Assembly (NCBI GenBank): GCA_963630455.1
Contig: CAVGNL010000139.1
Location: 1-24,679 of the forward strand
Reading direction: 5' to 3'
Length of the DNA: 24,679 bases
Source: Prevotella sp. CAG:755
Lineage (GTDB): Bacteria; Bacillota_I; Bacilli_A; RFN20; CAG-826
Shown: positions 6,683 to 23,764 of the stretch, in pieces
How the letters are laid out: each line of letters starts with the position of its first letter
Position numbering within the stretch: position 1 is the first letter of the stretch
Notes under the pieces: generated by a model
What the model saw: only the letters and a program-made list of their open reading frames with translations
Databases searched by the model: none
Told to the model about the DNA's origin: nothing
Translations under genes and position numbers: made by a program

Positions 6683-7321
6683 ATGATCGTAATTGGCGGA
6701 ATGATTGGAAGCGGGAAAACAACGACGGCGAAAATATTAGAGAAAGAACTTCACTTGCCAACATATTTCGAAAGTGTGAAAGGAAATGAAATTTTATCAC
6801 TTTTTTACACGGCAACTCCTAAAGAAAAGAAAGAAAAAAGATATCCGTTCCTTTTACAGCTCTCTTTTTTAAGGGCAAGGTTTAATACCTTACGGAACGC
6901 TCTTAAAGACGACAACGCCATCCTTGATAGGAGTGTTTTTGAAGACGCTTATTTCGCCAAGAAAAATTATGAATTGGGCAATATATCAGAGTTGGAGATG
7001 AAGATTTATAATGCCTTCCTCCAAGAGATTTTAGAAAGTTTGAGTGACTCAAAAAACAAAGACGAAATTACTCTGATTTATCTTCACGGATCATTTGAAA
7101 CCGTTTTCAAGCGCATCAAAAACAGAGGCCGTTCATTTGAGATTGCGCCTGAGCTTCTTTCATATTACAAATTCATTTATGATGGATACGATGAAATGAC
7201 GAAAGAAAACTATCCAAACTCTCAAATCATCGACATAAACATCGATGAGGTTGATTTGAAAAACGATTCCAAGGCAAGAGAGAAACTCTTAAATGAATTA
7301 AGAAGCAGAGGTGCGATTTAA
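6683..7321 (+). CDS. Deoxynucleoside kinase (dAK/dGK/dCK family); start revised to ATG at 6683
   Basis: IVIGGMIGSGKTT P-loop, FLLQLSFL, LDRSVFED, lid RIKNRGRSFE; GGAG SD at about 6670. Confidence 0.92.
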   Translation: MIVIGGMIGSGKTTTAKILEKELHLPTYFESVKGNEILSLFYTATPKEKKEKRYPFLLQLSFLRARFNTLRNALKDDNAILDRSVFEDAYFAKKNYELGNISELEMKIYNAFLQEILESLSDSKNKDEITLIYLHGSFETVFKRIKNRGRSFEIAPELLSYYKFIYDGYDEMTKENYPNSQIIDINIDEVDLKNDSKAREKLLNELRSRGAI

Positions 7322-7983
7322 TGGAAGAGATCGATTTGAAAAACTACAAGAAAAGAAATCAATATTATTATTTCTCGAAATTTCCTGATCCTTCTTATGG
7401 CCTTGACGTGGACATCGACGTCACAAACCTTATTGAATGCAAAGATAAGAAAGGTGTTTCGTTTTTCCCTCTTTTCCTTTATTGCCTCACCAAAGCGGTA
7501 AATTCCGTTTATGAGCTTCACCTACGAGAGGTGAATGGGAAAATCTATTACTATGATTTCATTCATCCAACATGGACTGTTATGGGCAATGACGGGGTTT
7601 ATATTAATGTCGGGATGGAATTTGAGCCTGAGTTGGATATTTTCATCAAAGAGGTAACCGAATTAAACGAAAAGGCTAAGAAAATGAATCCAAACGATGA
7701 TTTAAACACCTCTCCATTATGCTCTTTGCCTAACGTTATTCTCGCTTCATGCTTGCCAATACTGCATGTAAAGTCATTTAAGCACCCAACGCCTTCTGGA
7801 AATCATGACAATCTTTCTATCCCAAGAGTGTTATGGGATAAATATGAGAAGGGGATTGATAATAGATATCATCTTACGCTCAATATAACGGTATCTCATG
7901 CGTTAGTGGATGGTTTTCCTTTAGCCAACGTTTTTCTTTTTCTTCAGAAAGAAATAAATTCTCTTAGAGAGGAAACCTTATGA
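7321..7983 (+). CDS. CatA-like (chloramphenicol acetyltransferase family) O-acetyltransferase
   Basis: N-terminal EIDLKNYKKRNQYYYF, IDVT, SFFPLFLY, IPRVLWDKY and catalytic HALVDG (HxxxDG); 220 aa; TAATG coupling to the kinase. Confidence 0.82.
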   Translation: MEEIDLKNYKKRNQYYYFSKFPDPSYGLDVDIDVTNLIECKDKKGVSFFPLFLYCLTKAVNSVYELHLREVNGKIYYYDFIHPTWTVMGNDGVYINVGMEFEPELDIFIKEVTELNEKAKKMNPNDDLNTSPLCSLPNVILASCLPILHVKSFKHPTPSGNHDNLSIPRVLWDKYEKGIDNRYHLTLNITVSHALVDGFPLANVFLFLQKEINSLREETL

Positions 7984-9689: not shown

Positions 9690-12536
9690 TTATTTCACCA
9701 GCAAGAAAGTCGCGATTTTATGTTTCTTAAGCTCATAGGAGATGCTATTGTCATTGAATGAGATGTCGCTTATTGGCGTCTCATCGAGTTTTGTCTCTTT
9801 GACGCCTTTCAAAGAGAAGACGGTCGAAATGTTAAGCTTTTTATTTTCATCGGAGTTATTCCAAATGCGGTAAATGATGTCTTTGCCGTTTTCTGCAAGC
9901 TTGAAAGCACCAGAGACAACCGCTCCATCTCCGCCTTCGATTTTGATAAAGGAAGCTTTGGCTGGCAGTTTCCCTTTCGTTGGGACTCCCATAATGGCTT
10001 TCATTGCTACTTTGTTGGCATAAGCCTCTTCAAAAACCTTGCCTTCATTCCATAAGCCAGTGTGTGGATAGAGAGCGTATTCGTAAGTAAGGCTACCTAT
10101 GCAGTGTTGACCGGTATATTTATGAGTCTCTGCGAGAGTCATTTTGGAATTTGCGGTCATATAGGCTCTTTGCGTGCGGATCAAGGTAATCTTCAAGGTG
10201 CGGTTCTCATCATCTTCGACTTCGTATTCTCTTAATCCTTTAGAGAGGAAGGCGTAGCCAAGTTTTCCATCACTTACATCGACGAAATTCTGCATTGGTT
10301 GGAAAGAATAGAAGCCTTCTTTGTTGTCTTTGTGATCGCGCCACCTGATTGTTCTTTTCGCAACGTCCCAAGCTGATTCGGCATAGCACCAGTCGGCTTT
10401 TTCGATGGCAGTTGGATAGTGGACTGTGAGTTTATGATCTCGGGAATTATTGATGATGGTAGTTTTGATTTTGAGAGCTTTTGCTCCTTTTTCCAATGTT
10501 AAATACGTTTCGATGGATAAAGGCTTCATCTCGGAAGTGCGCTCATGGCCATCCAAAGAGGCTTCCGCAGGAATGTTCATCGTGAAAGCGATGCGGTAGA
10601 TGCCCCTTAGCTCATTGTTGCCTTCTATCATCTCGATATCGGCGTTGGCGCCAAAAGAGGTATAGGTTTTATTGACTTTCGGTTCAGCGTGCTCATGAGC
10701 GCTCCCGATTTCACCGGCATCGGTGTAGTAACCTTGGTTTTTCATCCAACGTTTTGTGAGTTTATCGAACATATCGAAAGTGCCGTTTGGATTGATTACG
10801 ACTTTAAGATATTCGTTTTCTAAGACGCCATTGCTTCTACCAATCAGTTTGCGATTATCAATGATTTCTGGCTCGAAAGCAAGATTTGCTAAACGCATGC
10901 GGAGTGCATAAGTGGCATAGCCATTTGCGGGAACTTTGGCTTTCACGAGGATATGCCTTCTTATGGTCTCGAATTTGATTGCTTTTGTATCAGTTTTTTT
11001 CTCAATGGCGACTAATGCCGTCTCAGAGGATAATTCCTTGCTTTCGATGATATTGCCTTTTTCATCCACGATATCAAAGAAAGTAGCAGCTGGGACAGGC
11101 GCGCCCATACCGTTATCGATCATCTTGACGGCGTCTTTTGGAGTATCGATAACTAGTTCAATCACCTCTTCGCGTTCGAAAGGAAGAGTGTTAAAAACGA
11201 CGATTGGATAATCTTCTTTTTCAAAACCAGTAGCAGTATCGATTTGCTGATAAAGGCTTACGCAGGCTCTGTTTGTAACTTCCTCGGCAACGGTTTTCGT
11301 GACGGAAAAAGAATAATTCATGTCAGTATGGGCACGATCAACGGCCGCGCCGCAGATGCTATCGTGGGCATGGCATTTCAATAGGGTATGCCAGGCGTGC
11401 TCGATGTTGGTGGCTGGGTATTCCCCACCGAGAAGGTATGAGGCGCTTGTTAAAGGCTCAGCAAGGTTAATCAGGCCATTTTCGCACTCTTCATTCATGA
11501 GTTTGATGTTGATGCGCGAAGAATGAGTTGCACCCAATAAAGCGTTGAAATCATCTGGTGCGAAAGTGGTATTACGGAGTTCTCCTTCGTAGCTAGCGTA
11601 GTCGTATTTTCCACTCTTAGCGAGATTCATAATGGTTTCCATATAGTCATCCATCCGCTCTTGCTTGATTTCGTAATCTGGATAGATCTTGTTCATGTCA
11701 GCGATTAATTCAGGCAAGTAACGATATGGCTCATCATTATCTTCCATGTTAAGGGCAAGAATATTGTTGCCAATAGCATAAGGCTCAGCTTGATTCAAAA
11801 GATAATCCAAAGAACGCTTAAGGACTTTCTCATCGTGGATATAGTTCTCGTTTTCCTTAGTGGCGACAAAGGCTTTCTCGTACGAACCCATATCGACCAT
11901 ATGAACCGGGGCTTCATCTCGACTGTATTTATAAGAAAGATCCTTCAGGCCCTTTCCTAAGACCGCTGGTCCATGGACATAGAAGAACCAATTTGTCCTC
12001 GTGACCTCATCAAAAGTTCTTAAAGTGAAAATAGAGCTTCCATCAGGTGCCGACCATTTGAATAAAGGGGTCAAGAAATGTTTGTTTGTTCCGCGATAGA
12101 AGATGGCGTTCTCGATGCCAAATCCTTGATAGAGTTGCGGAAGTTGGCTTGGTTGACCGTAAGAGGTAGCGGTATAACCCGATTTCATCGCTCCGCCGAA
12201 TTCCTTGCCCATTCTTCTTCCGGTTAAGAGATTACGGATCATGCTTTCTGGGGCAACGGTATTAGTTTCTGGCAAAGTATACCAATTAACGATGATCATT
12301 TTGCCTTCTTTGATGAGCTTTTTCACGCGTTCTCTATTTTCTGGACGAACGGTGAAATAGTCCTCTAAGACGATGGTGCCGCCATCAACGCAAAAATATT
12401 CATAAGTTGGCTTATTCTCCAAAATGTCGATGATGTTATCCATTAAATCGGCCAAGCGAAGTTTGCTTTGTTCAGCAGTATGTCTCCATTCCCGATCCCA
12501 ATGGGTTCCACTAATAAGATGAATTGTTTTTTTCAT
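9690..12536 (-). CDS. GH38 alpha-mannosidase-fold protein (MngB/SpGH38-like), cytoplasmic, atypical active site
   Basis: THWDREW, DGGTIVLEDY, WYTLPE, ESMIRNLL, SSRINIK, HAHDSICG, GLREYE, TLIR; 948 aa; no signal peptide; GAGG SD. Confidence 0.92.
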   Translation of the reverse strand: MKKTIHLISGTHWDREWRHTAEQSKLRLADLMDNIIDILENKPTYEYFCVDGGTIVLEDYFTVRPENRERVKKLIKEGKMIIVNWYTLPETNTVAPESMIRNLLTGRRMGKEFGGAMKSGYTATSYGQPSQLPQLYQGFGIENAIFYRGTNKHFLTPLFKWSAPDGSSIFTLRTFDEVTRTNWFFYVHGPAVLGKGLKDLSYKYSRDEAPVHMVDMGSYEKAFVATKENENYIHDEKVLKRSLDYLLNQAEPYAIGNNILALNMEDNDEPYRYLPELIADMNKIYPDYEIKQERMDDYMETIMNLAKSGKYDYASYEGELRNTTFAPDDFNALLGATHSSRINIKLMNEECENGLINLAEPLTSASYLLGGEYPATNIEHAWHTLLKCHAHDSICGAAVDRAHTDMNYSFSVTKTVAEEVTNRACVSLYQQIDTATGFEKEDYPIVVFNTLPFEREEVIELVIDTPKDAVKMIDNGMGAPVPAATFFDIVDEKGNIIESKELSSETALVAIEKKTDTKAIKFETIRRHILVKAKVPANGYATYALRMRLANLAFEPEIIDNRKLIGRSNGVLENEYLKVVINPNGTFDMFDKLTKRWMKNQGYYTDAGEIGSAHEHAEPKVNKTYTSFGANADIEMIEGNNELRGIYRIAFTMNIPAEASLDGHERTSEMKPLSIETYLTLEKGAKALKIKTTIINNSRDHKLTVHYPTAIEKADWCYAESAWDVAKRTIRWRDHKDNKEGFYSFQPMQNFVDVSDGKLGYAFLSKGLREYEVEDDENRTLKITLIRTQRAYMTANSKMTLAETHKYTGQHCIGSLTYEYALYPHTGLWNEGKVFEEAYANKVAMKAIMGVPTKGKLPAKASFIKIEGGDGAVVSGAFKLAENGKDIIYRIWNNSDENKKLNISTVFSLKGVKETKLDETPISDISFNDNSISYELKKHKIATFLLVK

Positions 12537-12602: not shown

Positions 12603-12642
12603 CTGATTTTTTTTGAAATTAGTTGTGTTACTATATGCCAAT

Positions 12643-14145
12643 ATGAAAAAACAAATATTTTGCGTAAGGCACATAACGCTCTCAGATGATGAACTTGCTC
12701 TTTTTACGTGTTTGCAGGGTTTAGCGAACAAAATTAAACCTGAATTGTTACTTGACGTTGACCATTATCTCGACTTCATTGACAAAAACGAATATGAAAT
12801 CTTAATGATTGATTTTAAGACCGCTCTCAATAAATATCTCCCTTCCTTGTCTTCTTATCTTCTTTATAATCTCGATCCATCTTCAACTGAAATCAACGCC
12901 GCTTTTTCGATAAGCGCTGCGACTGGAGCTCTAGCCATTCCTTCTTCTTTGGAATATCTCGTCAAAGGAAAATTGTCTCTTGTTGAGGATTTAACGAAAC
13001 TCGGTTTGGACAATTTAAACGTGCAACGTTATGCATTTGCTAAATACAAAGATAAATTGTCGAAAACCGGCTTAATCCATGAGCCTATTGGTAAAAATGA
13101 TGGGCATTTCCTTATCTCTTTGAGAGATTTTGCGATAACAAACAAATGGTTCGTTCTTTATGTCGATGAAAGCAAGGAACAAAGACGGTTCCTTGATGAA
13201 GTGCTATCCTACTTAGATAAAGGCATATGCATATATGGCTGGACGAGCGATGAAATCTCTTTTGTTAACCAAATTTCTAAATATGGTGATGCCATCATTC
13301 CTATGGATTGGAGTTCAAATCATTCTTTTTTTGGAACTTTCTCTCCGAAAAAAGTCGCAAGAAAAAAACATTATGAGGAGATAAAAGAGAATAGACATTA
13401 TCTGTCTTTTGTGGTGAGCGATGGAGATAACATTCAGTGGCTTGAAAGAAGCTATTGTTTTTCCTCTTTCTATATGGATTTAGCCTCAGTAAGACGCAAA
13501 TACCCTTTGACGATGTCAATTAGTCCAGCTCTCATCGACCTTAATCCGATGTGCCTTGAATATATTTACCATCATGTCGACAACGAGGATTTTATCTGCG
13601 GCGTTTCTGGTTATGGATATATGAATCCTTGTGTTTTCCCACGCGAATTTCTTCCTGCTTATGTTAAGAAAACGAGCGAATATCTCTCATTTATGGATAT
13701 CAATGTTGCGATGCTTTTGGACAATAAGAGGGACATGAGCAAAGAAAAGGTCGAGTTTGTCGTTTCTTCCTATGCCAAATGCCCAAATATCATTGGAGGG
13801 GTTTATGAGATTGATCCGAGCAAATATGAAGGCGGAAAAGGAAAGGTGTTTTGGGCGAATGATAAGCCATTTATCTCAGTAAAAGCCTCTCTTTGGAATC
13901 TTTTTGACAGAAAAGAAGAGGAAGAAACAAACAAAGAGAAACTCATCAACGATTTAGCTGGTTTCATAAATTCTTTGCCCATCGATCCTTTTGAGGAAAG
14001 CGGCTATAGCGTCATCAACGTCCATCCATGGTCTACTACTTGCAAAGACCTTGATAAATTAGTTAATCTATTAAGTGACAACGTGCAAATTCTCGGCATT
14101 GAACAATTGATTCTCTTGATGAGGAAAAACATAAAAAGAAAATAA
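12643..14145 (+). CDS. GxGYxYP-family putative glycoside hydrolase, cytoplasmic; start revised to ATG at 12643
   Basis: LQGLANK, LRDFA, IYGW..DE, DWSSNHS, VVSDGDNIQW, SGYGYMNP, VINVHPWS; no hydrophobic signal peptide. Confidence 0.85.
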   Translation: MKKQIFCVRHITLSDDELALFTCLQGLANKIKPELLLDVDHYLDFIDKNEYEILMIDFKTALNKYLPSLSSYLLYNLDPSSTEINAAFSISAATGALAIPSSLEYLVKGKLSLVEDLTKLGLDNLNVQRYAFAKYKDKLSKTGLIHEPIGKNDGHFLISLRDFAITNKWFVLYVDESKEQRRFLDEVLSYLDKGICIYGWTSDEISFVNQISKYGDAIIPMDWSSNHSFFGTFSPKKVARKKHYEEIKENRHYLSFVVSDGDNIQWLERSYCFSSFYMDLASVRRKYPLTMSISPALIDLNPMCLEYIYHHVDNEDFICGVSGYGYMNPCVFPREFLPAYVKKTSEYLSFMDINVAMLLDNKRDMSKEKVEFVVSSYAKCPNIIGGVYEIDPSKYEGGKGKVFWANDKPFISVKASLWNLFDRKEEEETNKEKLINDLAGFINSLPIDPFEESGYSVINVHPWSTTCKDLDKLVNLLSDNVQILGIEQLILLMRKNIKRK

Positions 14146-14161: not shown

Positions 14162-15160
14162 ATGATTTCAATCAATGATATAGCGGAAAAAAGCGGAGTG
14201 GCAAAATCCACGGTCAGCAACGTTCTTTCAGGCAAGCGCTACGTCTCTGAGCCTATCAGAGAAAAAGTGCTTAAAGTTTGTAAGGAATACAACTATTCGC
14301 CAAATTTTTACGCATCCCTCTTAAGCAATGCCGACAACGTTAGGACGAATATCATTGGCGTTTTCCTCGAAACTTCAACGAAAAGATACCACAATTTCTA
14401 TAATGACGTGATAAGAACAACGCTTACTTATTGGAGCGATTATAACGTTAACGTCCTTCTTTATTTTGGACCGAAAGAAAAGGAAGTTTCCGATAAATTA
14501 AGGAAGGGGCAATCTCCAATCGATGGAGCGATACTCGTGGGGCCAACCCTCATGGATACGCGTATATCAGAAATGGAATTGAACTCAATTCCTTTTGTTG
14601 TCATCGGTTCGACAGATTCTGAAAAAATAACCTGTGTTGATACCAATAACGAGACATTATGCGAATATATTGCCAAAAAGATGATTGAAGTTGGGAAAGA
14701 CAAGATATGTCTTATCAATTCGAATCAGTCACTCACCATTTCCAAAGACAGGGAGAAGGGGTTCATGAAAGCAATCGAAGAAAAGAAACCTTCGATGCAT
14801 TCTTCCTTCTATACTGAGAATTCTTCTGTTGAAGAGGGCTTCTATCACGCTTCTCTTTCGCTTGAAAAAGGCTATAACGCCTTCATCGTCGGCTCAGCCA
14901 TTATCGCAAAGGGCGTCTATCAGGCAATTAGGAGCAAGAACCTTATTGTTGGGAAGGATGTAGTGGTCTTTGCTCTTGGATCACCTAAAAAAGATCTTGA
15001 AGCGTTTGACATACCTCTTTCTTATGCCGAACAAGATTATGGTCAACTCGCTCTTGAAGCCTCTATCCAGCTACGTGAGATTATGAATGAAGGCAAACCA
15101 CATAATGTCTTGATAAAAAGCAAGATTCATGTCAATGATTCATTCGTGTTTGAGGAATAA
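14162..15160 (+). CDS. LacI-family transcriptional regulator
   Basis: HTH ISINDIAEKSGVAKSTVSNVLS, hinge YSPNFYA, IDGAIL, IPFVVIG, VDTNN. Confidence 0.93.
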   Translation: MISINDIAEKSGVAKSTVSNVLSGKRYVSEPIREKVLKVCKEYNYSPNFYASLLSNADNVRTNIIGVFLETSTKRYHNFYNDVIRTTLTYWSDYNVNVLLYFGPKEKEVSDKLRKGQSPIDGAILVGPTLMDTRISEMELNSIPFVVIGSTDSEKITCVDTNNETLCEYIAKKMIEVGKDKICLINSNQSLTISKDREKGFMKAIEEKKPSMHSSFYTENSSVEEGFYHASLSLEKGYNAFIVGSAIIAKGVYQAIRSKNLIVGKDVVVFALGSPKKDLEAFDIPLSYAEQDYGQLALEASIQLREIMNEGKPHNVLIKSKIHVNDSFVFEE

Positions 15161-15385: not shown

Positions 15386-16645
15386 ATGAAAAAAAGATTC
15401 AAATTACCAATCCTACCAATTTTGTTATCAACTTGCCTAATCGCTTGCGCTCCGAAAGAAAAGACAAGCGGAGGAGATGAGAATAAAACCATCACCGTTT
15501 GGTGGCCGTCGACAAATAGCTACATGAAGGTTATTCAAAACGCCAAAGAAAAATTCGAAGCCGATAATCCTAATTGTACGATTAAGATCGTTAAGAAATC
15601 CGGCCTCGACCTTTATCAAGCATATCAAGTTGCCTTAAACGATGATAAATCACGCCCCGATATCGCGATCATCGATCATGTTTACGTTCAATCTTTGGCT
15701 AACGAAGGCCAACTAGCCGACTTATCCGCTCTAGGAGCAGATACTGAGGTAAAAGAACTTGTTCCAGAAAATATATATAATGCCAACGCGTATTTAGGAA
15801 AGGCTTACGCTCTTCCGATGTCAGCAAATACGGTTGCTTTGATGTATAACATGACGATGCTAAAGAAATCCGGCATCAATAACGCTCCAACTACTTATAG
15901 CGAGTTTCTTTCGGATTTGGAAACCATCAAAAACGGATGCACTGAGGCTGAAGTAGCATTTGCTCAACCAATTAATTCAACCTTCTCGGCAATGGAATTC
16001 GTGAGTTATGTTTCACGCTTAGGAGGAAGCTTAGTTTCTGAAGATTGCAAAACAGTCAAGATTGATTCAACAGAGGTCAAAAATGCCATCGCCGAATGGG
16101 TGAAGCTTTCGAAATTTGCCTCTCAGAACGAATATGAGGAGGGCAAGTTCTATAATGGCAAATGCGCCTTCATCGAAATGGGTTCTTGGAATCTTAGCAA
16201 AATCAATTACAACGCCGTTGAGCTCGGCATCAAGGAAATGCTGCCGCTCATGGACGGGGGAACTGGCTATTCTGGATTAGGTTTATATTCCCTAGCCATC
16301 GCCAAAAAATCCTCATGTGTCAACGAGGCCTATAAATTTGCCAAATACCTTTCCACAGATAAAGAGAGCCAGATTGCCTTTGCTAAAGCAGGTAGCCTCT
16401 TCCCTGTCACGAAAGAAGCTCTTGGCGATACTTATTACACCTCTGATCAATATCTTTCCGTTTATGCTTCGCAACTCGAGCACGTCACTCCTAGGCCAGC
16501 CACTCCGATTTGGCCTTTTATGGAGAAAAAACTCGTGACCTTACTTTATAGATGCGTTACCGCCACAAGCGAAGATACAATCGCTCAAGCTATCGCCACT
16601 TGCCAAAGCGAATGCCAAAGCGAAACAGACCGCAAATTGGGCTAA
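15386..16645 (+). CDS. Sugar ABC transporter substrate-binding lipoprotein (family 1)
   Basis: Lipobox LIAC; TITVWW, PDIAIID, LADLS, GKAYALP, LMYN, FYNGKCAF..GSW, EAYKFAKYL. Confidence 0.92.
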   Translation: MKKRFKLPILPILLSTCLIACAPKEKTSGGDENKTITVWWPSTNSYMKVIQNAKEKFEADNPNCTIKIVKKSGLDLYQAYQVALNDDKSRPDIAIIDHVYVQSLANEGQLADLSALGADTEVKELVPENIYNANAYLGKAYALPMSANTVALMYNMTMLKKSGINNAPTTYSEFLSDLETIKNGCTEAEVAFAQPINSTFSAMEFVSYVSRLGGSLVSEDCKTVKIDSTEVKNAIAEWVKLSKFASQNEYEEGKFYNGKCAFIEMGSWNLSKINYNAVELGIKEMLPLMDGGTGYSGLGLYSLAIAKKSSCVNEAYKFAKYLSTDKESQIAFAKAGSLFPVTKEALGDTYYTSDQYLSVYASQLEHVTPRPATPIWPFMEKKLVTLLYRCVTATSEDTIAQAIATCQSECQSETDRKLG

Positions 16646-16648
16646 AAA

Positions 16649-17617
16649 ATGAGAAAGAAAGACACTTCTATCATTTACGATTTAAATTATCGGGACATTG
16701 AGAGAAACTCTTTGTTGAAGAAAAAGAGATTTTTCTCGCGTGAGGATAAAACTTCTTACCTGATGATTTTTTTGCCGATGCTTTGGTGGGGGGTCTTCTT
16801 TGTTTATGCTTTTGTGAGGGCTGTTTATTTTTCTTTCACCGATTTAACGCTTGATGTGAGTAATATCAGCGTCTTCTTTACCTTTGACAATTACGTGCGC
16901 TTATTTCATGATGAGACCTTCTTGGCATCAATGAAAAACACCATCATCTGGACGGTGTCGATGACGATTGCCAATAATGTTCTTGGGCTCATTTTCGCTT
17001 ATCTCATCACAAAGATGAAGAAAGGTCAAAAGCTTTTTTTGACGCTCCTATTCTGGCCGACTCTTGTTTCCTCGGTTGCTTCGACTGAGATCACAAAGCA
17101 GATTTTCAGTCCTTCCGATAGTGGTTTGATGAACCAGATAATTATGGCTTTCGGAGGAAACAAATTAGCTTGGTACAACGATAAGTCTTTGGCTCTTATC
17201 ACTTTGATGATCATGCCGCTTTTATTGGGGTTTTCTTCCCAACTCATTATTTATTACGTCGCTTTGAAAGGCGTCGACCAAAATCAAATAGAGGCGGCAA
17301 AGATTGATGGGGCAAAAGGATTCTCGATTTTTAAGAATATCTATGTGCCTTCGATTATGAAAGCAATCAACTATAACGTCATTCTTTCTATCATTTCTGG
17401 CGTACGAATCATGGGTCCAATGCAACTTATCGCTGATAATCCTTTGATTGCTGGTGGGCCTGATAACGCCACGATTACTGTAGTTCTCTACCTTTACCAA
17501 AATATTCTCAATAACGAAATGGCTTATGCTTGCGCAATCGGCGTCATCACGACGATCGTTATCGTCTTCTTCTCGATAATGCAACGAAAAGTCTCAGGCA
17601 ATAATAAGGGGTTTTGA
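16649..17617 (+). CDS. Carbohydrate ABC transporter permease (CUT1, MalF/UgpA-like)
   Basis: SFTD, FDNYVRLF, EAA loop EAAKIDGA, GGP, YACAIG; transmembrane helices. Confidence 0.92.
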   Translation: MRKKDTSIIYDLNYRDIERNSLLKKKRFFSREDKTSYLMIFLPMLWWGVFFVYAFVRAVYFSFTDLTLDVSNISVFFTFDNYVRLFHDETFLASMKNTIIWTVSMTIANNVLGLIFAYLITKMKKGQKLFLTLLFWPTLVSSVASTEITKQIFSPSDSGLMNQIIMAFGGNKLAWYNDKSLALITLMIMPLLLGFSSQLIIYYVALKGVDQNQIEAAKIDGAKGFSIFKNIYVPSIMKAINYNVILSIISGVRIMGPMQLIADNPLIAGGPDNATITVVLYLYQNILNNEMAYACAIGVITTIVIVFFSIMQRKVSGNNKGF

Positions 17618-18519
17618 TGATGATGGATGATAGGAAACTTCAAATAGAAATCGCGACGAGAGATGCAAATGCGAAAATTAAGAAAGATAAAATCAGCGGC
17701 ATCATTTTGACGGTGACGATTGTTATTGTCCTTTCTATTATCGCTTTGGCTCAGATTTTTCCTTTTTATCTCCAATTCGTCACCTCTCTTCAGCCTGTTG
17801 AGGGTTTTTATCCAGAATACGGCAAAATCTATTTTTTCCCTGTGGAAATATGTTTTTCTAACTATGTCGAGGCTTTTATTGAAGGAGAGTTGCTAGAAGG
17901 AATCAAAAACACTTTGATCGTGGCCTTTGGCTTCATCATTCTCTCTTCTATCATCATTCTCCTTATGGGGTATGTTTTAGCGAAGAAGAAGTTCAAAGGG
18001 CGTAGCATCGTTACTTGGTGCCTTCTTATCACGATGATGGTCCCTGGTGAGATATTAATGGTCACCAACTATCAACTCGTTTCTTCTTTAGGCTGGACTA
18101 GCTCTTACGCTGGGCTTATTCTTCCAGGCATTGTCAATGTAACTGGCATTTTCCTTGTGAAAGCCTTCATGGATTCGATACCTGATGCTTGCCTAGAAAG
18201 CGCAAAATTAGATGGGGCAAGCGAACTTAAAATCCTTCTTTCGATTGTGCTTCCGCTTTCTTTCCCAGTGATTTCAACTTATATCGTGCTTAATTTCGTG
18301 GCTCAATGGAACGATTATCTTTGGCCGATGCTGATTACTGGCGATAGCTCAATGTTCACAATCCAACTTAAACTCTATAACTTTGCTGGTTCGAGCGATT
18401 GGGGAGAGACGGTTTATAAAGCCGCGTCCTTGATCATTTCCCTAATTCCAGTTCTAATCGTTTATTTTTGCTGCCAGAAGAAATTCATCGGCGGCTTGAA
18501 TTTTTCAGGCATCAAATAG
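17617..18519 (+). CDS. Carbohydrate ABC transporter permease (CUT1, MalG/UgpE-like); start is one of the ATGs at 17617/17620/17623
   Basis: NTLIV, GYVLAKKKFKGR, MMVP, ESAKLDGA, WNDYLWP, QKKFIGG; TGATG overlap. Confidence 0.92.
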   Translation: MMMDDRKLQIEIATRDANAKIKKDKISGIILTVTIVIVLSIIALAQIFPFYLQFVTSLQPVEGFYPEYGKIYFFPVEICFSNYVEAFIEGELLEGIKNTLIVAFGFIILSSIIILLMGYVLAKKKFKGRSIVTWCLLITMMVPGEILMVTNYQLVSSLGWTSSYAGLILPGIVNVTGIFLVKAFMDSIPDACLESAKLDGASELKILLSIVLPLSFPVISTYIVLNFVAQWNDYLWPMLITGDSSMFTIQLKLYNFAGSSDWGETVYKAASLIISLIPVLIVYFCCQKKFIGGLNFSGIK

Positions 18520-18531
18520 GAGGTAACCAAA

Positions 18532-20808
18532 ATGAAAAAGAAAATGATGTCGTTATTGCTCTTCTTCGGCGCTTTGCTCGCTTCATGCGCCACAAACAAG
18601 ACCGATTCCGGTAAAAGCGATGAGAGCCAGACTTCCTCAACTTCCCAAGGTGATGACAACGTCAAAAAAATCAAGGAAGGAGCTTTCTATAAGCCGAATG
18701 GGTTTGCCACAACGTGCTATGTGATTCCTAGAAGCTCTTTAACAAGCGCGGAATTCGTCCTCATTCAATCTCTTCAAGGCATTTTGGCTCAAAATAAAGC
18801 CACGATTTTCATCTCTGGCATGGGAGAGAAGGATGCGACTTTCACGGAGATGAGCGAAAAGTTGGGCTTTTCTATCGTTGAGATTGAAGACCCATGGGAA
18901 TTATTGAGGATTCATAAGAAGTCAATCGTAAATCAGAAGTTCGTTACCTATACTTCCACAGATAAAGGCGATGCTTACGATAATTCCATTAATCGTGCGG
19001 CCACGATTGCCGGCGTTGAGCAATGGATCATGGTCGAGAATAGCCTGGTCAGCCAATGTCTTGCAGAAGGCTTTAAACTCGGATCCGATGCTTCAAATAT
19101 GACGGATGCAGAAGTTTTCCACAAATATAAAGAATTCCTTAACAATACCTATTTGGTGAATCAGAAGCCGAGCTCTCTTCCTTTAAGAGATTATGGAATC
19201 GCCGGCGCTAGCTTATCGACTTATGTGGATTATATCGATGATGATCTTCGCAAAGAGATATCGGAGTGGACTTGTTCGAATTGCCCGGTTTTTGGCTGGA
19301 CAGAGAATGAAGGCAGCTTCGTTGCGTATAATTCGAATTACTCGATGGTCACTATCGCTGCAGATTGGAGCGGGAACCTCTCTTTTATGGCGGCTGAGGA
19401 TATTAATAATGATTTAGTGCCAGCAAATAGAAGCAAATCCACCGTCAAAGCTGAAGAAGGAAAGCATTATGTTACCATCGTTATGTCGGATGGTGACAAC
19501 GTGCAATGGCTCCAACGTGGTTTTGAAACCGATAGCAAATACTACGGTTCGAAATATCGTGGCAAATTCAAGATGAATTGGACGATGGCTCCATCCTTGA
19601 GCGATGTCGCCCCTTATGTCATGGAGTCAATTTACGATAAAGCCACAACGAAAGATGATTTCATCTGTGGGCCTTCAGGATTCGGCTATGTCAATGTCAA
19701 CGACTATAACGAATCGACTATGGAAGATTATGCCGCAAAAACGGCCGGTTATTGTGAGAAATCCGGCTTAAGCGTCCTTAATTTCATCGACAATTACGTT
19801 TCTTCTTCCTATCTTGATTATTTTACTAAATACGACAACATCAAAGGCGGGCTTTGGAGCGTTAGTGATTATTATGTCCAAGGAGGCGATACTGGGGCAG
19901 GTGGAGTTTATTGGAGCAATGATAAACCATTCGTTTGCTTCCGCGACACTCTTTGGAGAGTATCGGGCTCAGCGGTTGCCAAATATTATGGCTATACGGA
20001 AAGAGTGGCTCAGCGTATCAATGATCGTTCAACAGATATTCATTCTATCGAAGCTTATTCGGCTGTTGTTTGCCATGCTTGGTCTATTGGCACGATGGAA
20101 TACATCAACCGTTTTGTTGAGCAACTTGACGATCATGTTGAAGTGGTGAATGCTGGCGAATTTATCGATCTCATCACGGAAAACGTGCCGCATCAAGATG
20201 TTGAGGAAGTGTTGGATCATAACCCTTTCGCATATAGCGATGATGAATTATGCGCGATTGAAACTGATCCTTTCTATTGGAATGATGTTAAAGATACGCC
20301 TGTTACCAATAAAAAGGCTTGGGATTTCTCTTCTGGGGAGCAAAGCGATTGGACGCTTGGATGTGGAGGATTGCAATACGACAGCGCAAAATACACAAGT
20401 GATGGTATTTATCTAGATGGCTCAGACCTCGATGATAGAGACGACTATATTCCAAATGCCTATGCCTACACGATGAGAAATTGGTCAAATGAAGATAAGA
20501 AAATAACGATGGTTGCCAAATCCGGCTCGGCTACTTCGGACGTCAATTTGCGTGTGAGGCTCTACTTGGAGGATCCTAATTCGAAACGTGGCGCAAGTTC
20601 TATCAATTTGGTTGCAAATGAATGGGATAAGGCAAAAGTGAACCAATATGGTTATTATCTATTCCAAAGCGGCGAATTCCAGACCTTCACCTTTGATTTA
20701 TCTTCCTATGATTTGGCTGGCAAAAAAGGCTTGCTTGTCTTTGAAAGCGATGATAGCGGCGAAGGAAGTGGTGAAATAGTTAGATGCAAATCCATCAGCA
20801 TTGAATAA
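18532..20808 (+). CDS. GxGYxYP-family putative glycoside hydrolase, surface lipoprotein with extra C-terminal domain
   Basis: Lipobox LASC and Ser/Thr linker; SLQGILA, LRDY, VFGW..NE, DWSGNLS, VMSDGDNVQW, SGFGYVNV, VVCHAWS; AGGAGG SD. Confidence 0.85.
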   Translation: MKKKMMSLLLFFGALLASCATNKTDSGKSDESQTSSTSQGDDNVKKIKEGAFYKPNGFATTCYVIPRSSLTSAEFVLIQSLQGILAQNKATIFISGMGEKDATFTEMSEKLGFSIVEIEDPWELLRIHKKSIVNQKFVTYTSTDKGDAYDNSINRAATIAGVEQWIMVENSLVSQCLAEGFKLGSDASNMTDAEVFHKYKEFLNNTYLVNQKPSSLPLRDYGIAGASLSTYVDYIDDDLRKEISEWTCSNCPVFGWTENEGSFVAYNSNYSMVTIAADWSGNLSFMAAEDINNDLVPANRSKSTVKAEEGKHYVTIVMSDGDNVQWLQRGFETDSKYYGSKYRGKFKMNWTMAPSLSDVAPYVMESIYDKATTKDDFICGPSGFGYVNVNDYNESTMEDYAAKTAGYCEKSGLSVLNFIDNYVSSSYLDYFTKYDNIKGGLWSVSDYYVQGGDTGAGGVYWSNDKPFVCFRDTLWRVSGSAVAKYYGYTERVAQRINDRSTDIHSIEAYSAVVCHAWSIGTMEYINRFVEQLDDHVEVVNAGEFIDLITENVPHQDVEEVLDHNPFAYSDDELCAIETDPFYWNDVKDTPVTNKKAWDFSSGEQSDWTLGCGGLQYDSAKYTSDGIYLDGSDLDDRDDYIPNAYAYTMRNWSNEDKKITMVAKSGSATSDVNLRVRLYLEDPNSKRGASSINLVANEWDKAKVNQYGYYLFQSGEFQTFTFDLSSYDLAGKKGLLVFESDDSGEGSGEIVRCKSISIE

Positions 20809-20820
20809 GGAGAAATGATT

Positions 20821-22254
20821 ATGAAAAAGACAAATCTATTCTTGATTCCTCTCTCAGTCTTGCTTTTAGCGGGATGCGATTCGACAAATTCTTCTTCTGA
20901 TAAGAGTGTGGAAGAAAGCTCTTCTAGCCAAATTGAATTAAAACTCTCAACACCGACGATCAAACTTGATGGAAACCTTATTAGTTGGGAGAGGGTTGAA
21001 CACGCTAGCGGATATTGCTTATATGAGAACGATGAGGTGAAATACAATCATCTAAATACTTTGTCATATGAAATATCCGTCGATGAAAGCGGAACATATT
21101 CCTACTATATTGTTGCTCTCGATAGAAACAATTCTTACCTTCCAAGCGAAAAGAGCAACGCCGTCTCTTACACTTATGAAAAACCGGTGGCTCTTGTCGC
21201 TCCGAGGATTTCTTTGAATGATAAGACCATCTCCTGGGAAGAGGTTCCTGGCGCTGAGAAATATTGCATCTATAGCAATGGCGAATACTTAATTGACGTC
21301 ACTTCGACTTCTTACACCCTCTCTTTTAGCGAAGTTGGAGGCTATAACATCCAAGTTCAGGCTAAACGCGGGGACGAACTTTCGCCATTTTCAAACACGG
21401 TCATTTATAAAAATGTCGATGGAATAAGTTTGAATACTTCGACTTCTTGGAACCGAACCACTTTATATAACGAATGGATCAGAAGCGGCGATTTCGATAC
21501 GGGAGTTGGCGAAGGATTCGATATGAAAGCGGGGGCCACGGCTTTCGTTTATCACGCTATCTCTAGCGAAACAAGATTCCTTAAGGTTTCAATCAGAAAT
21601 TTCGTGCGCGAAGGAGAGACAAACCCGAAATTCTTCGTCTATGTTGATGGAAAGGTAGTGCGAGCTAACGATTCAACAACGGATTATGTTACTCTAAATA
21701 GCGACTCCCCAATCGACTTTATTTATGACCTTTCTCTATATGTCGGTGAAAATGTCTTTATTAAATTCTATGAGGCTGCCGCCACGCATTGTTGCATCAC
21801 TAGCGTCAAATTGCTTGAACGGGCTGGTGCCACTTTGAGTGAAAACACCTCTTGGGAGAATAAGGATAGTTTCTTTGCCGACTGGTATACTTCTTCCGTC
21901 AATTCCATCAATGAAGGACCTGATTTTGCGGGAAATGGCAGCGCGGCAATCAAAATCAATCTGACCGAGGAGAAGCGCTACTTCACCGTCACTTGGCGTA
22001 TGTTTGTCAATCAAGACACTGATAAAGCACGCGTTTTGACAATGGTCGATAAAAACACCGTCAAGGCTATAGGCGTTACCACGGAATATGTCTTAGTAGA
22101 AGCTGCTGAAGGAGATCCGCACTTCACCTATATTTATGATTTCTCCGATTATATCGGAAGTACCGTGACAATCACTATGACTTCTATCAACAAAGCGGTC
22201 AATCATTGCGTCTTCTTAAATGCCAAATTGAGCGCTTCGAACAGCAATTCCTAA
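20821..22254 (+). CDS. Hypothetical surface lipoprotein: two Fn3-like repeats plus two repeated beta-rich domains; start likely 20821
   Basis: Lipobox LAGC; internal repeats visible by eye; AAGGAG SD at 20807-20812 is spaced for the ATG at 20821. Confidence 0.75.
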   Translation: MKKTNLFLIPLSVLLLAGCDSTNSSSDKSVEESSSSQIELKLSTPTIKLDGNLISWERVEHASGYCLYENDEVKYNHLNTLSYEISVDESGTYSYYIVALDRNNSYLPSEKSNAVSYTYEKPVALVAPRISLNDKTISWEEVPGAEKYCIYSNGEYLIDVTSTSYTLSFSEVGGYNIQVQAKRGDELSPFSNTVIYKNVDGISLNTSTSWNRTTLYNEWIRSGDFDTGVGEGFDMKAGATAFVYHAISSETRFLKVSIRNFVREGETNPKFFVYVDGKVVRANDSTTDYVTLNSDSPIDFIYDLSLYVGENVFIKFYEAAATHCCITSVKLLERAGATLSENTSWENKDSFFADWYTSSVNSINEGPDFAGNGSAAIKINLTEEKRYFTVTWRMFVNQDTDKARVLTMVDKNTVKAIGVTTEYVLVEAAEGDPHFTYIYDFSDYIGSTVTITMTSINKAVNHCVFLNAKLSASNSNS

Positions 22255-22270
22255 ACAAAGGAGATAATTT

Positions 22271-23764
22271 ATGGCAAATGTCGTTTTACGAAATATCAAT
22301 AAAATCTATGATAACGGTTTCCATGCCGTTCACGATTTCTCATTCGATATCTCTGACAAAGAGTTCGTTGTTTTCGTTGGCCCTTCGGGATGTGGAAAGA
22401 GCACGACTTTACGAATGATCGCCGGGCTAGAAAATATAAGCGATGGCGAACTCTATGTCGATGGCATTTTGTTCAATAATGTTTCTCCACAAGACCGCGA
22501 TGTAGCGATGGTCTTCCAAAATTACGCTCTTTATCCACATATGAGCGTTTACGAGAATATGGCTTTCGGTTTAAAGAATCACAAGATCAAAAAGCCGAAA
22601 TTAAATGAAAATGGCGAACAAGAGAAGCTTGTTGACAAAAAGACAATCAAATATCTCGAAAAACAGATTAAAATCGCCTCGAAAAGCTTAAAGAAAAAGA
22701 ATCTCACAGATGATGAACGCTCATTTTTGGAAAAAGAGAAAAAAGAATACGAAGAGAAAATCTCCTTAGTTAAGACAAATCCTGTCCCGGCTTATGTTTA
22801 TGTCAAATATCCAAAAGAGGAAATCGATAGTCGTATTAGAAAGGCTGCCAAAATTCTTGATATTGAACAATTTTTGAATCAAAAGCCAAAATCGCTTTCC
22901 GGCGGGCAACAGCAACGCGTTGCTTTGGGCAGAGCAATTGTTAGAAACCCAAAACTCTTCCTTATGGATGAGCCTCTTTCTAATTTAGATGCCAAACTTC
23001 GTGTGGCGATGAGAAGTGAAATTGTGGATTTGCATGAGAAAATCGGGGCGACGACAATTTATGTAACCCACGATCAAACCGAAGCAATGACGATGGCCGA
23101 TAAAATCATTGTCATGAATAAAGGCTACATTCAACAAATCGGAAAACCCGAAGAAATATACCGCCATCCAGCTAACCGCTTCGTGGCTACCTTTATAGGG
23201 AGCCCAGCCATGAATCTTTTCAAAGCGACTTATTCTTTGAAAGAAGGCAATATTGATATCGGCGAGACGAAAATTAAACTTAGCAAAGGGAAGCAAGAGG
23301 CCGTTAAAGCAAAACTTGCTGAAATCATTAAACGTTATGAGCAAGATTCCCTCACGATTGAAAGCAATATTGCCGATTATTGCGCTAAAAATAACCTCAA
23401 AGCAAGAAGCGAGAAAAAGAAAATCGATGTTGCGAATAGAATTGCTTCCGATGAAGTTCTCAATAAGCGGAAAGCGTATTTGTTTTCGCTCAAAGATGAA
23501 GTCGATAAAGGCACGATCGCTTTGACTCTTGGAATCCGCCCTGAGGATATTTTGATTGGGGAAAGTGGCCAAAAAATCAAGACAACGATTGTAGAGCTAC
23601 TTGGAGCGCAACTTATTGTTCATGGCTTATTAGATGAGACCCATATCGCGATTACTTCACCTGCGAATACAAATATAAAATCGCACGATACGGCATACAT
23701 CACTTTCAATGAGGATAATATTCATCTTTTCCTCACCGACGATAATGAGACTTCTTTAATCTAA
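22271..23764 (+). CDS. msmX: Sugar ABC transporter ATP-binding protein (MsmX/MalK/UgpC-like) with large insertions
   Basis: [60 protein letters not shown]. Confidence 0.93.

Follow-up and report, generated by a model that had tools for sequence, protein, structure and literature searches.

A conserved GH38-fold protein without the family's nucleophile aspartate and its HAD-type partner: relationships and a proposed mechanism

Introduction

How could a glycosidase of family GH38 work when the aspartate that is both its nucleophile and one of its zinc ligands has been replaced by threonine? The question is raised by a gene, here called P0001, on a 24,679-nucleotide stretch of DNA from Prevotella sp. 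CAG:755 (GTDB lineage Bacteria; Bacillota_I; Bacilli_A; RFN20; CAG-826; assembly GCA_963630455.1, contig CAVGNL010000139.1, positions 1 to 24,679 of the forward strand), which in its full length is referred to below as the window. To our knowledge, GH38 is treated as a uniformly retaining, zinc-dependent α-mannosidase family with an aspartate nucleophile. Databases name the homologs that lack this aspartate 'alpha-mannosidase' or 'mannosylglycerate hydrolase', and annotation transfers the canonical GH38 function to every member, the Asp-less ones included.

Alignments, structure prediction and comparison of loci point to a catalytic variant of GH38 that is conserved and widespread, is so far uncharacterised and has a dedicated partner of the HAD family; a mechanism for it is proposed. 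P0001 itself is probably an active enzyme, judging from the conservation described below. If Asp-less proteins are active, a second catalytic mechanism exists within GH38; if phosphate is their nucleophile, they would provide a new, energy-saving route of mannoside catabolism and a new sugar phosphate. Neither an Asp-less GH38 nor a GH38 phosphorylase nor a β-phosphomannomutase was found reported in the literature searched, outside which most subscription journals lie. The assayed bacterial GH38s BT3774, R. UCG13 GH38-A and R. UCG13 GH38-B entered our comparison by description rather than by sequence.

The GH38-fold protein P0001

The open reading frame of P0001, 9690-12536 on the reverse strand, is open throughout and encodes 948 amino acids. 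The reverse strand of 12188-12141 codes for MKSGYTATSYGQPSQL (GGT TAT ACC GCT ACC for its GYTAT portion), and Thr124 is specified by ACC at 12167-12165; the coordinates of this and all other features are collected in Table 1. Four Pfam domains were detected above their cut-offs (PF01074, 1e-29; PF09261, 2e-11; PF07748, 3e-13; PF17677, 5e-10). When P0001 was compared with solved GH38 chains by phmmer, gytatsygq paired gap-free with gyfpdtfgn of 3lvt/5kbp (E 2e-87) and with 2wyh (E 4e-72), and Thr124 therefore sits on the aspartate.

The reference for the remaining active-site residues is the streptococcal enzyme SpGH38. According to the available part of its structural description, zinc is held by H13, D15, D125 and H351, D125 is also the nucleophile and D232 the acid/base; D125 is contacted by R149 and Y192, the sugar is stacked by W18 and F127, and an inhibitor is bound by D352 and Y574 (PMC2815779). 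The corresponding residues of P0001 are H12 (H13), D14 (D15), T124 (D125), H391 (H351) and D266 (D232), and further R148 (R149), W17 (W18), Y126 (F127), D392 (D352) and H614 (Y574), the last derived by counting through the phmmer alignment to the solved chains. An earlier, sequence-only reading of this DNA had proposed that the nucleophile is replaced by Thr124, that H12, D14 and T124 keep the spacing of H13, D15 and D125 in SpGH38, that H12, D14, H391-D392 and the acid/base D266 are retained and that the reading frame is intact; alignment, the SpGH38 paper as far as it was available (PMC2815779) and the reading frame itself agree with it on each of these points.

A model of P0001 built with AlphaFold2 (AF2) from a 79-sequence alignment (pLDDT 92.7; pTM 0.93) superposes along its whole length on 5kbp and 2wyh (Foldseek TM 0.82–0.83). 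P0001 has the same five-domain fold as SpGH38 (2WYH/2WYI) and the Enterococcus faecalis GH38 (3LVT/5KBP; Foldseek E about 1e-78 to 1e-80) and shares with them, in P0001 numbering, the zinc ligands H12, D14 and H391 as well as D266, D392, R148 and W17. It differs from both, at an overall identity of about 24–25%, in the Asp-to-Thr exchange, in Arg18 for Tyr19, in Arg180 for the Gly that precedes the nucleophile-binding Tyr, in His614 for Tyr574, in DN for DH after the acid/base position, and in an insertion of ~25 residues after position 182. In the AF2 secondary structure T124, R148, R180, E265/D266 and H12/D14/R18 are located at the C-terminal ends of barrel strands or immediately behind them, i.e. 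on the catalytic face. Measured against what defines a GH38 enzyme, P0001 thus has the domain set, the overall fold, the three remaining zinc ligands and the acid/base, and lacks the nucleophile Asp.

Its best NCBIfam model is NF007331, which describes the mannosylglycerate hydrolase MngB, and since the score of 423.1 bits is far under the cut-off of 1138, P0001 is no MngB equivalog. MngB of Escherichia coli acts on a phosphorylated mannoside. Like P0001, for which no signal peptide was predicted and the same holds for the adjacent HAD protein, it is a cytoplasmic GH38; it differs in that the P0001 locus imports by an ABC importer and not by a phosphotransferase system.

Conservation of the altered motif was followed in two collections. 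A word-index protein search with P0001 returned 3584 proteins at E <= 1e-10, and the motif GYTAT(S/A)YG is kept in all of the closest 120 of these (55–100% identity), 118 reading GYTATSYG and two GYTATAYG. The sequence-only reading had called for a search for a clade conserving GYTATSYGQ and had named aspartate in all close homologs as the outcome that would speak against it; the clade was found, and every one of the 120 has Thr. In a scan of species-representative genomes that yielded 261 relatives, 80 loci were kept, of which 71 motif-bearing genes encode position 124 by all four threonine codons (ACT 21, ACA 21, ACC 19, ACG 10). Not one amino-acid change was seen at this position among the 71 genes, and synonymous sites were saturated, a pattern indicating that Thr124 is under purifying selection. 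By the genetic code, GAY to ACC takes two base changes, as the sequence-only reading had pointed out. Its view that the active site has been remodelled, and is not the product of decay or sequencing error, is upheld by the motif in 120 of 120 homologs, by the four Thr codons and by the near-invariance of the other catalytic residues.

An Asp-less branch of GH38

To place P0001 among its more distant relatives we aligned it with 20 close homologs and with the 150 best representatives of an exhaustive 50%-cluster search; five of the 171 rows had no residue at column 12, 124 or 391 and were dropped. The 166 rows kept were ranked by similarity to an Asp-less query, which biases the proportions that follow. 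Position 124 is the canonical Asp in 61 rows, part of T-A-T in 27 (Thr-type) and another residue in 78 (F 41, T 16, C 8, S 6, N 3, A 3, R 1), so that 105 rows are without Asp. Loss of the aspartate is hence not special to P0001 and, as far as alignment can define it, marks a far larger Asp-less branch of GH38-like proteins. In a FastTree tree calculated after removal of the motif columns, for which no root was inferred, a single change separates Asp from no Asp, on a branch whose local support is 97%; because all distant GH38s among the PDB matches have Asp, we read this change as one event of loss. Thr124 was considered as a direct substitute nucleophile and appears unlikely in this role, because Asp loss spans the larger branch with Phe as the commonest replacement; the position is occupied by Phe, Cys, Ser or Asn in sister clades in which R18, R180 and the HAD partner are also present.

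The rest of the catalytic apparatus is maintained throughout. H12, D14, H391, D392 and D266 are conserved in 27/27 Thr-type, 76–78/78 other Asp-less and 60–61/61 canonical rows. Arg18 is found in 27/27 Thr-type and 53/78 other Asp-less proteins. A screen for positions kept in at least 85% of Asp-less/Arg18 proteins yet different in canonical GH38 yielded R18 (canonical Y, 55/61), Q128 (canonical H, 50/61) and R180 (canonical G, 48/61) and nothing else; within this screen no carboxylate gained in common by the Asp-less branch was detected. In canonical enzymes the 'GY.N/WY.N' motif contains a Tyr that corresponds to SpGH38 Y192; R180 aligns with the position just ahead of this Tyr, and the ~25-residue insertion after position 182 is found in the Asp-less proteins.

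Private to the Thr clade are changes near the catalytic motifs at G10, G53, V83, A123, T181, E265, N267, A397, H614, N738 and 788–794. Three neighbouring alterations that the sequence-only reading had listed could be placed: DGGT for DGQT (position 53 is G in 26/27 Thr-type and Q in 59/61 canonical rows), WYTLPE for WY...D (position 90 is E in 24/27 and D in 59/61) and NMED for NGxD (position 264 is M in 22/27 and G in 55/61). Glu265 occurs in 24 of 25 Thr-clade sequences and in neither of the other groups, the sister Asp-less clades having H, M, C or V; position 90 carries E or D in each of the three groups.

Among the bacteria with Asp-less relatives are gut Clostridia, Mollicutes-like bacteria, Planctomycetota and members of other phyla. 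The 80 genome loci come from Clostridia (50), Planctomycetota (8), Mollicutes/Bacilli (6), Chloroflexota, Verrucomicrobiota and Sumerlaeota (2 each) and a few others, among which two 'Bacteroidia' loci, one from Faecalibacterium and one from Akkermansia are probably binning errors. A sample of P0001's own phylum gave a GH38-like match in 5 of 400 genomes, all close matches being Thr-type, and no such match was present in 11 other genomes of the source genus (96–99% complete); the locus is therefore accessory. Its closest copies (88–91% identity) lie on contigs labelled Faecalibacterium and Bacteroidaceae, labels that are probably binning errors as well.

Different types of GH38-like gene can share a locus. 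In one case a Phe-type Asp-less gene (L069:7114-9900; HWDREFR, GYNVFSFGQ) stands directly upstream of the Thr-type and HAD genes, giving a tandem of types. In several loci from Clostridia (L066:12802-15192, L064:5212-7614, L072:5372-7738) a canonical-type GH38 of ~790–800 amino acids, with the metal motif NAHLDPVW and the Asp kept in GFDAFGH, is located between the Thr-type and the HAD gene, so that Asp-bearing and Asp-less genes share an operon.

The HAD partner gene

One nucleotide after the stop codon of P0001 starts a gene for a 327-amino-acid protein of HAD subfamily IA. The protein matches PF13419 and PF00702, has a fold fitting HAD-IA enzymes, with a helical cap between motifs I and II, and carries a conserved, β-rich N-terminal extension of 78 amino acids with a GYPAYYPV motif. 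Its core motifs, D85-L-D87-G-T, T198-S199, K249 and E277-D278, are invariant or nearly so in 28 sequences. By tblastn 62 of the 80 genome loci contain a homolog, which in nearly every case directly follows the GH38-like gene, and with 57–89% identity these homologs are better conserved than the GH38-like protein. The linkage was seen in Bacillota, Mycoplasmatota, Planctomycetota, Chloroflexota and Verrucomicrobiota.

Eighty further loci of mixed type came from a metagenome scan in which Phe-type proteins served as the seed. Adjacency was counted for GH38-like genes of at least 800 amino acids that are flanked on either side by 1 kb of sequence or more, by an ORF-based procedure that misses some HAD genes found by tblastn. 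A HAD gene lies within 300 bp of 41/57 Thr-type genes (anywhere in the locus, 46/57) and of 7/17 other Asp-less genes with Arg18 (10/17), compared with 0/8 Asp-less genes without Arg18 (1/8) and 0/15 canonical genes (1/15). From these counts it follows that the HAD partner tracks the combination of a missing Asp and Arg18, and does so in clades with different residues at position 124.

The nearest solved structures by sequence are β-phosphoglucomutases of the PDB, at a weak E of about 1e-3. A complex prediction for GH38-like residues 1–440 together with the HAD protein gave a score of 0.00, which carries no weight either way. A single protein of 965 amino acids (P0391) was noted in which a HAD of the 327-amino-acid type (66% identity) is fused to a sialate O-acetylesterase-type domain (PF03629), a hint at acetylated sugar substrates.

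Proposed mechanism and alternatives

Which nucleophile could then replace the aspartate? Our preference, held tentatively and well short of even confidence, is that P0001, which is intact and selected, is an active cytoplasmic enzyme with a non-protein nucleophile, phosphate being favoured, and with the HAD protein as its partner. Imported mannose-type oligosaccharides or glycosides would be cleaved in the cytoplasm by P0001 acting jointly with the HAD enzyme. Attack on the anomeric carbon would be a single displacement, and the attacking nucleophile, no side chain of the protein, would occupy the site vacated by the Asp carboxylate, between the zinc (held by H12, D14 and H391) and R148, R180 and R18, and the leaving group would be protonated by D266. 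Inorganic phosphate is the favoured candidate for this nucleophile; zinc-bound water, which would make the enzyme an inverting hydrolase, comes second. Phosphorolysis would yield a sugar 1-phosphate in β configuration (in the case of mannose, β-mannose 1-phosphate), and this product would be converted by the HAD enzyme as a mutase or a phosphatase. Both proteins are predicted to be without signal peptide, and a mutase may fit a cytoplasmic catabolic pathway better than a phosphatase. We infer from sequence the lining of the vacated pocket by the arginines, the binding of phosphate in it, the identity of the sugar and the action of the HAD protein.

Phosphate is favoured because it would explain both the arginines and why Arg18 and the HAD gene go together, and because it mirrors the pairing of GH65 with β-phosphoglucomutase. 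On its side, too, are the likeness of the HAD protein to β-phosphoglucomutases, a weak one, in its nearest solved sequence relatives and its best NCBIfam model, and the genes for mannose and sugar-phosphate metabolism in related loci. In GH65 α-glucoside phosphorylases the base found in the related GH15 enzymes is missing, and the partner is a β-phosphoglucomutase. The logic would be the same in both cases, with no carboxylate opposite the leaving group, phosphate in its stead and a HAD mutase gene adjacent; the two differ in that GH65 has an (α/α)6 fold, that phosphorolysis by P0001 is only proposed and that its HAD protein is no β-phosphoglucomutase equivalog. As expected of a phosphorylase, no protein carboxylate was found at the position of nucleophile or base: Asp is lost, and no Asp or Glu was gained across the branch, though E265, specific to the Thr clade, may act in that role. 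A phosphorylase would also need a pocket of basic residues facing the anomeric carbon; R148 is kept, R180 and R18 were gained at what alignment and strand topology suggest are barrel-top positions, and these three may form it. In its most specific form the proposal would make the Asp-less/Arg18 proteins the first GH38-fold phosphorylases, and the first to derive from a retaining glycosidase by loss of the nucleophile, with phosphate attacking α-mannosides under inversion and the HAD protein as a β-phosphomannomutase feeding mannose 6-phosphate to glycolysis; in this form we regard it as rather unlikely.

Several observations weigh against the proposal. The HAD protein reaches 30.7 bits with its best NCBIfam model, the β-phosphoglucomutase model TIGR01990, against a cut-off of 189.4, and its Foldseek neighbours are mostly sugar-phosphate phosphatases (mannitol-1-phosphatase, alnumycin phosphatase, CbbY, YniC), with putative β-phosphoglucomutases at rank 11 and lower. 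Most HAD-IA enzymes are phosphatases. The arginine pocket is a prediction from alignment and strand topology. Since none of the eight Asp-less genes without Arg18 has an adjacent HAD gene, Asp loss alone does not need a HAD partner, and the ROK and hexokinase genes of related loci imply that free hexose is also produced there. Natural β-mannose-1-phosphate metabolism was not found in the literature searched. Finally, E265 could serve the Thr clade as a relocated nucleophile or base, and with so many further residues exchanged near its active site this clade may act on a sugar other than plain mannose.

The main alternative is a hydrolase with a non-Asp mechanism, in which the HAD protein would be a sugar-phosphate phosphatase acting on phosphorylated substrates or products such as phosphomannan oligosaccharides. 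We consider this explanation doubtful on balance, though a serious contender. It can be conceived in two versions. Zinc-bound water could attack C1, resulting in an inverting α-mannosidase like the metal-dependent enzymes of GH47 and GH92, or, following the proposal made for GH99, a zinc-activated 2-OH could form a 1,2-anhydro intermediate. Precedents exist for the individual elements, none of them with the GH38 fold: GH97 comprises inverting and retaining members and thus illustrates a change of mechanism within a family, GH99 dispenses with a protein nucleophile and proceeds via a 1,2-anhydro intermediate, and the metal-dependent inverting α-mannosidases of GH47 and GH92 exemplify metal-assisted water. 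The conserved zinc ligands and acid/base, together with the want of a new carboxylate common to the branch, agree with either version, as do the phosphatases that head the structural neighbours of the HAD protein, and water as the default nucleophile fits the missing HAD neighbour of the Asp-less genes without Arg18.

A GH38 that cooperates with a phosphatase also has a precedent in yeast mannan degradation by Bacteroides thetaiotaomicron, where, in the available sections of the report, BT3774 (GH38) cleaves Man-1-phosphate linkages and mannosidic bonds and the sugar-6-phosphatases BT3783 and BT2630 remove the phosphate (PMC4978465). This system differs from P0001 and its HAD protein in that it is periplasmic and that its phosphatase belongs to another fold, likened in the paper to a tyrosyl-DNA phosphodiesterase (PMC4978465). 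GxGYxYP genes, two of which lie divergently from P0001 in the window, have likewise been seen in an α-mannan locus and near GH38, GH92 and ROK genes (PMC4071793, in the part available). Against a hydrolase stands that the gain of two arginines is left without a reason where only water is needed, that a useful phosphate ester would presumably be wasted by a phosphatase working within a cytoplasmic catabolic operon, and that HAD linkage goes with Arg18 and not with any particular accessory glycosidase.

An ordinary retaining α-mannosidase whose nucleophile has moved to another carboxylate, E265 or the conserved E90, appears quite improbable. The distribution of E265 within the Thr clade and the acidic residue at position 90 in all groups provide candidates for such a move, and mixed catalytic machineries within one family are known, as in GH97. 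However, no gained carboxylate is common to the Asp-less branch, and the residues of the sister clades at position 265 are not acidic; E265 directly adjoins the acid/base D266, and a nucleophile so placed would be geometrically unusual, and E90/D90 is also present in canonical enzymes that still need D124. A relocated nucleophile would moreover leave the HAD linkage and the gained arginines unexplained. That P0001 is a non-catalytic GH38-like pseudoenzyme with a sugar-binding, scaffolding or regulatory role, for which the loss of the defining nucleophile and zinc ligand and the want of a characterised Asp-less member in the literature searched might speak, is very improbable, as the remaining metal ligands, acid/base and sugar-binding residues are near-invariant across phyla, Thr124 is strictly conserved, the gene is placed in catabolic operons with transporters and enzymes, and the canonical Asp-bearing GH38 alongside it in some loci speaks for an enzymatic step of its own and against a dead copy.

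Genomic context

Divergently from P0001 and the HAD gene, on the opposite strand, the window encodes two GxGYxYP-family proteins, a regulator, a sugar importer and further proteins, homologs of which recur among the 80 genome loci (Table 1).

Table 1. Features of the P0001 locus, with positions in the window
Feature	Coordinates	Strand	Evidence or remark
GH38-fold gene P0001, 948 aa	9690..12536	-	Asp-less 'GYTAT' clade; ORF, translation, Pfam, AF2, Foldseek
Motif GYTATSYGQ, aa 120-128, in place of canonical GY.PD.FGH	12153..12179	-	
Thr124 codon ACC, site of the GH38 nucleophile/zinc-ligand Asp	12165..12167	-	alignment, SpGH38 paper
HWDREWR, aa 12-18	12483..12503	-	H12 and D14 zinc ligands; W17 sugar-stacking Trp; Arg18 replaces canonical Tyr
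Arg148	12093..12095	-	equivalent of SpGH38 R149 (partner of the nucleophile Asp), kept despite Asp loss
Arg180	11997..11999	-	gained in whole Asp-less branch; canonical Gly; beside position of nucleophile-H-bonding Tyr of SpGH38
E265-D266-N267	11736..11744	-	D266, acid/base equivalent (SpGH38 D232); E265 and N267 Thr-clade-specific, canonical D-H
H391-D392	11361..11366	-	H391 fourth zinc ligand (SpGH38 H351); D392 substrate-binding Asp (SpGH38 D352)
His614	10695..10697	-	equivalent of SpGH38 active-site Tyr574; Y in canonical, W in other Asp-less
HAD-IA gene, 327 aa	8705..9688	-	starts 1 nt after GH38-like stop codon; core motifs, Pfam, conserved adjacency
Cytoplasmic GxGYxYP-family putative glycoside hydrolase, divergent	12613..14145	+	PF14323 9.5e-47; homolog in 43/80 loci
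LacI-family regulator	14162..15160	+	homolog in 33/80 loci
Sugar ABC importer: solute-binding lipoprotein and two permeases	15386..18519	+	homologs in 29-37/80 loci
GxGYxYP-family lipoprotein, 758 aa, predicted extracellular	18532..20808	+	homolog in 42/80 loci
479-aa lipoprotein without Pfam family	20815..22254	+	homolog in 21/80 loci
MsmK/MalK-type ABC ATPase	22271..23764	+	homolog in 15/80 loci

In the Planctomycetota loci the trio of GH38-like, HAD and GxGYxYP genes is kept, with a sodium:solute symporter in place of the ABC importer. Recurrent neighbours in the genome loci include a ROK kinase (13 loci), hexokinase and the α-mannosidases of GH125 and GH92 (3 loci each), and URO-D-like proteins. 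Beside other Asp-less/Arg18 genes we found phosphoglucomutase/phosphomannomutase (PGM/PMM; 4 loci), a mannose-6-phosphate-isomerase cupin (4), GH94 (3), phosphodiester glycosidase (3), sulfatase (5) and URO-D-like proteins (6). The neighbouring genes therefore place these proteins in the catabolism of mannose-type glycans or glycosides, linked to sugar-phosphate metabolism; the genome from which the window derives also encodes a phosphomannose isomerase.

The activity of GxGYxYP proteins is given as unknown in the available parts of the paper that reports their occurrence in an α-mannan locus (PMC4071793) and, as far as the sources extend, in both papers that mention the family. The trio of Asp-less GH38, HAD and GxGYxYP proteins offers a testable handle on this family.

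GH38 and GH94 have also been met together in the xanthan-degradation locus of R. UCG13, which in the accessible portion of the preprint comprises two active GH38s plus GH94 (10.1101/2021.06.02.446819). A role of the present proteins in xanthan degradation was considered and dropped, as Pfam scans of three tandem-GH38 loci revealed no PL8, GH88 or GH5 set.

Two of the neighbouring families deserve separate mention. A phosphodiester glycosidase with a secretion tail (PF09992, the 'uncovering enzyme' family) adjoins Phe-type Asp-less/Arg18 genes at L087:6296-7954 and in two other loci, which may indicate a link to sugar-1-phosphodiester polymers. Proteins of the URO-D family (PF01208, uroporphyrinogen decarboxylase/methyltransferase-like) are encoded beside Asp-less/Arg18 and HAD genes in three genome and six metagenome loci (for example L053:10723-11967, L121:2142-3092 and L122:1384-2493, also L058 and L070).

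In the window itself two further genes stood out. The MsmK/MalK-type ATPase has 497 amino acids, and its ABC match covers residues 21–236 against a profile of 137 positions, which corresponds to a Lys/Glu-rich insertion of ~80–100 residues in the nucleotide-binding domain. Between the genes for a deoxynucleoside kinase and a NUDIX protein, positions 7321-7983 encode a 220-amino-acid protein of the chloramphenicol acetyltransferase family (PF00302, 66 bits), for which the 80 related loci yielded no homolog.

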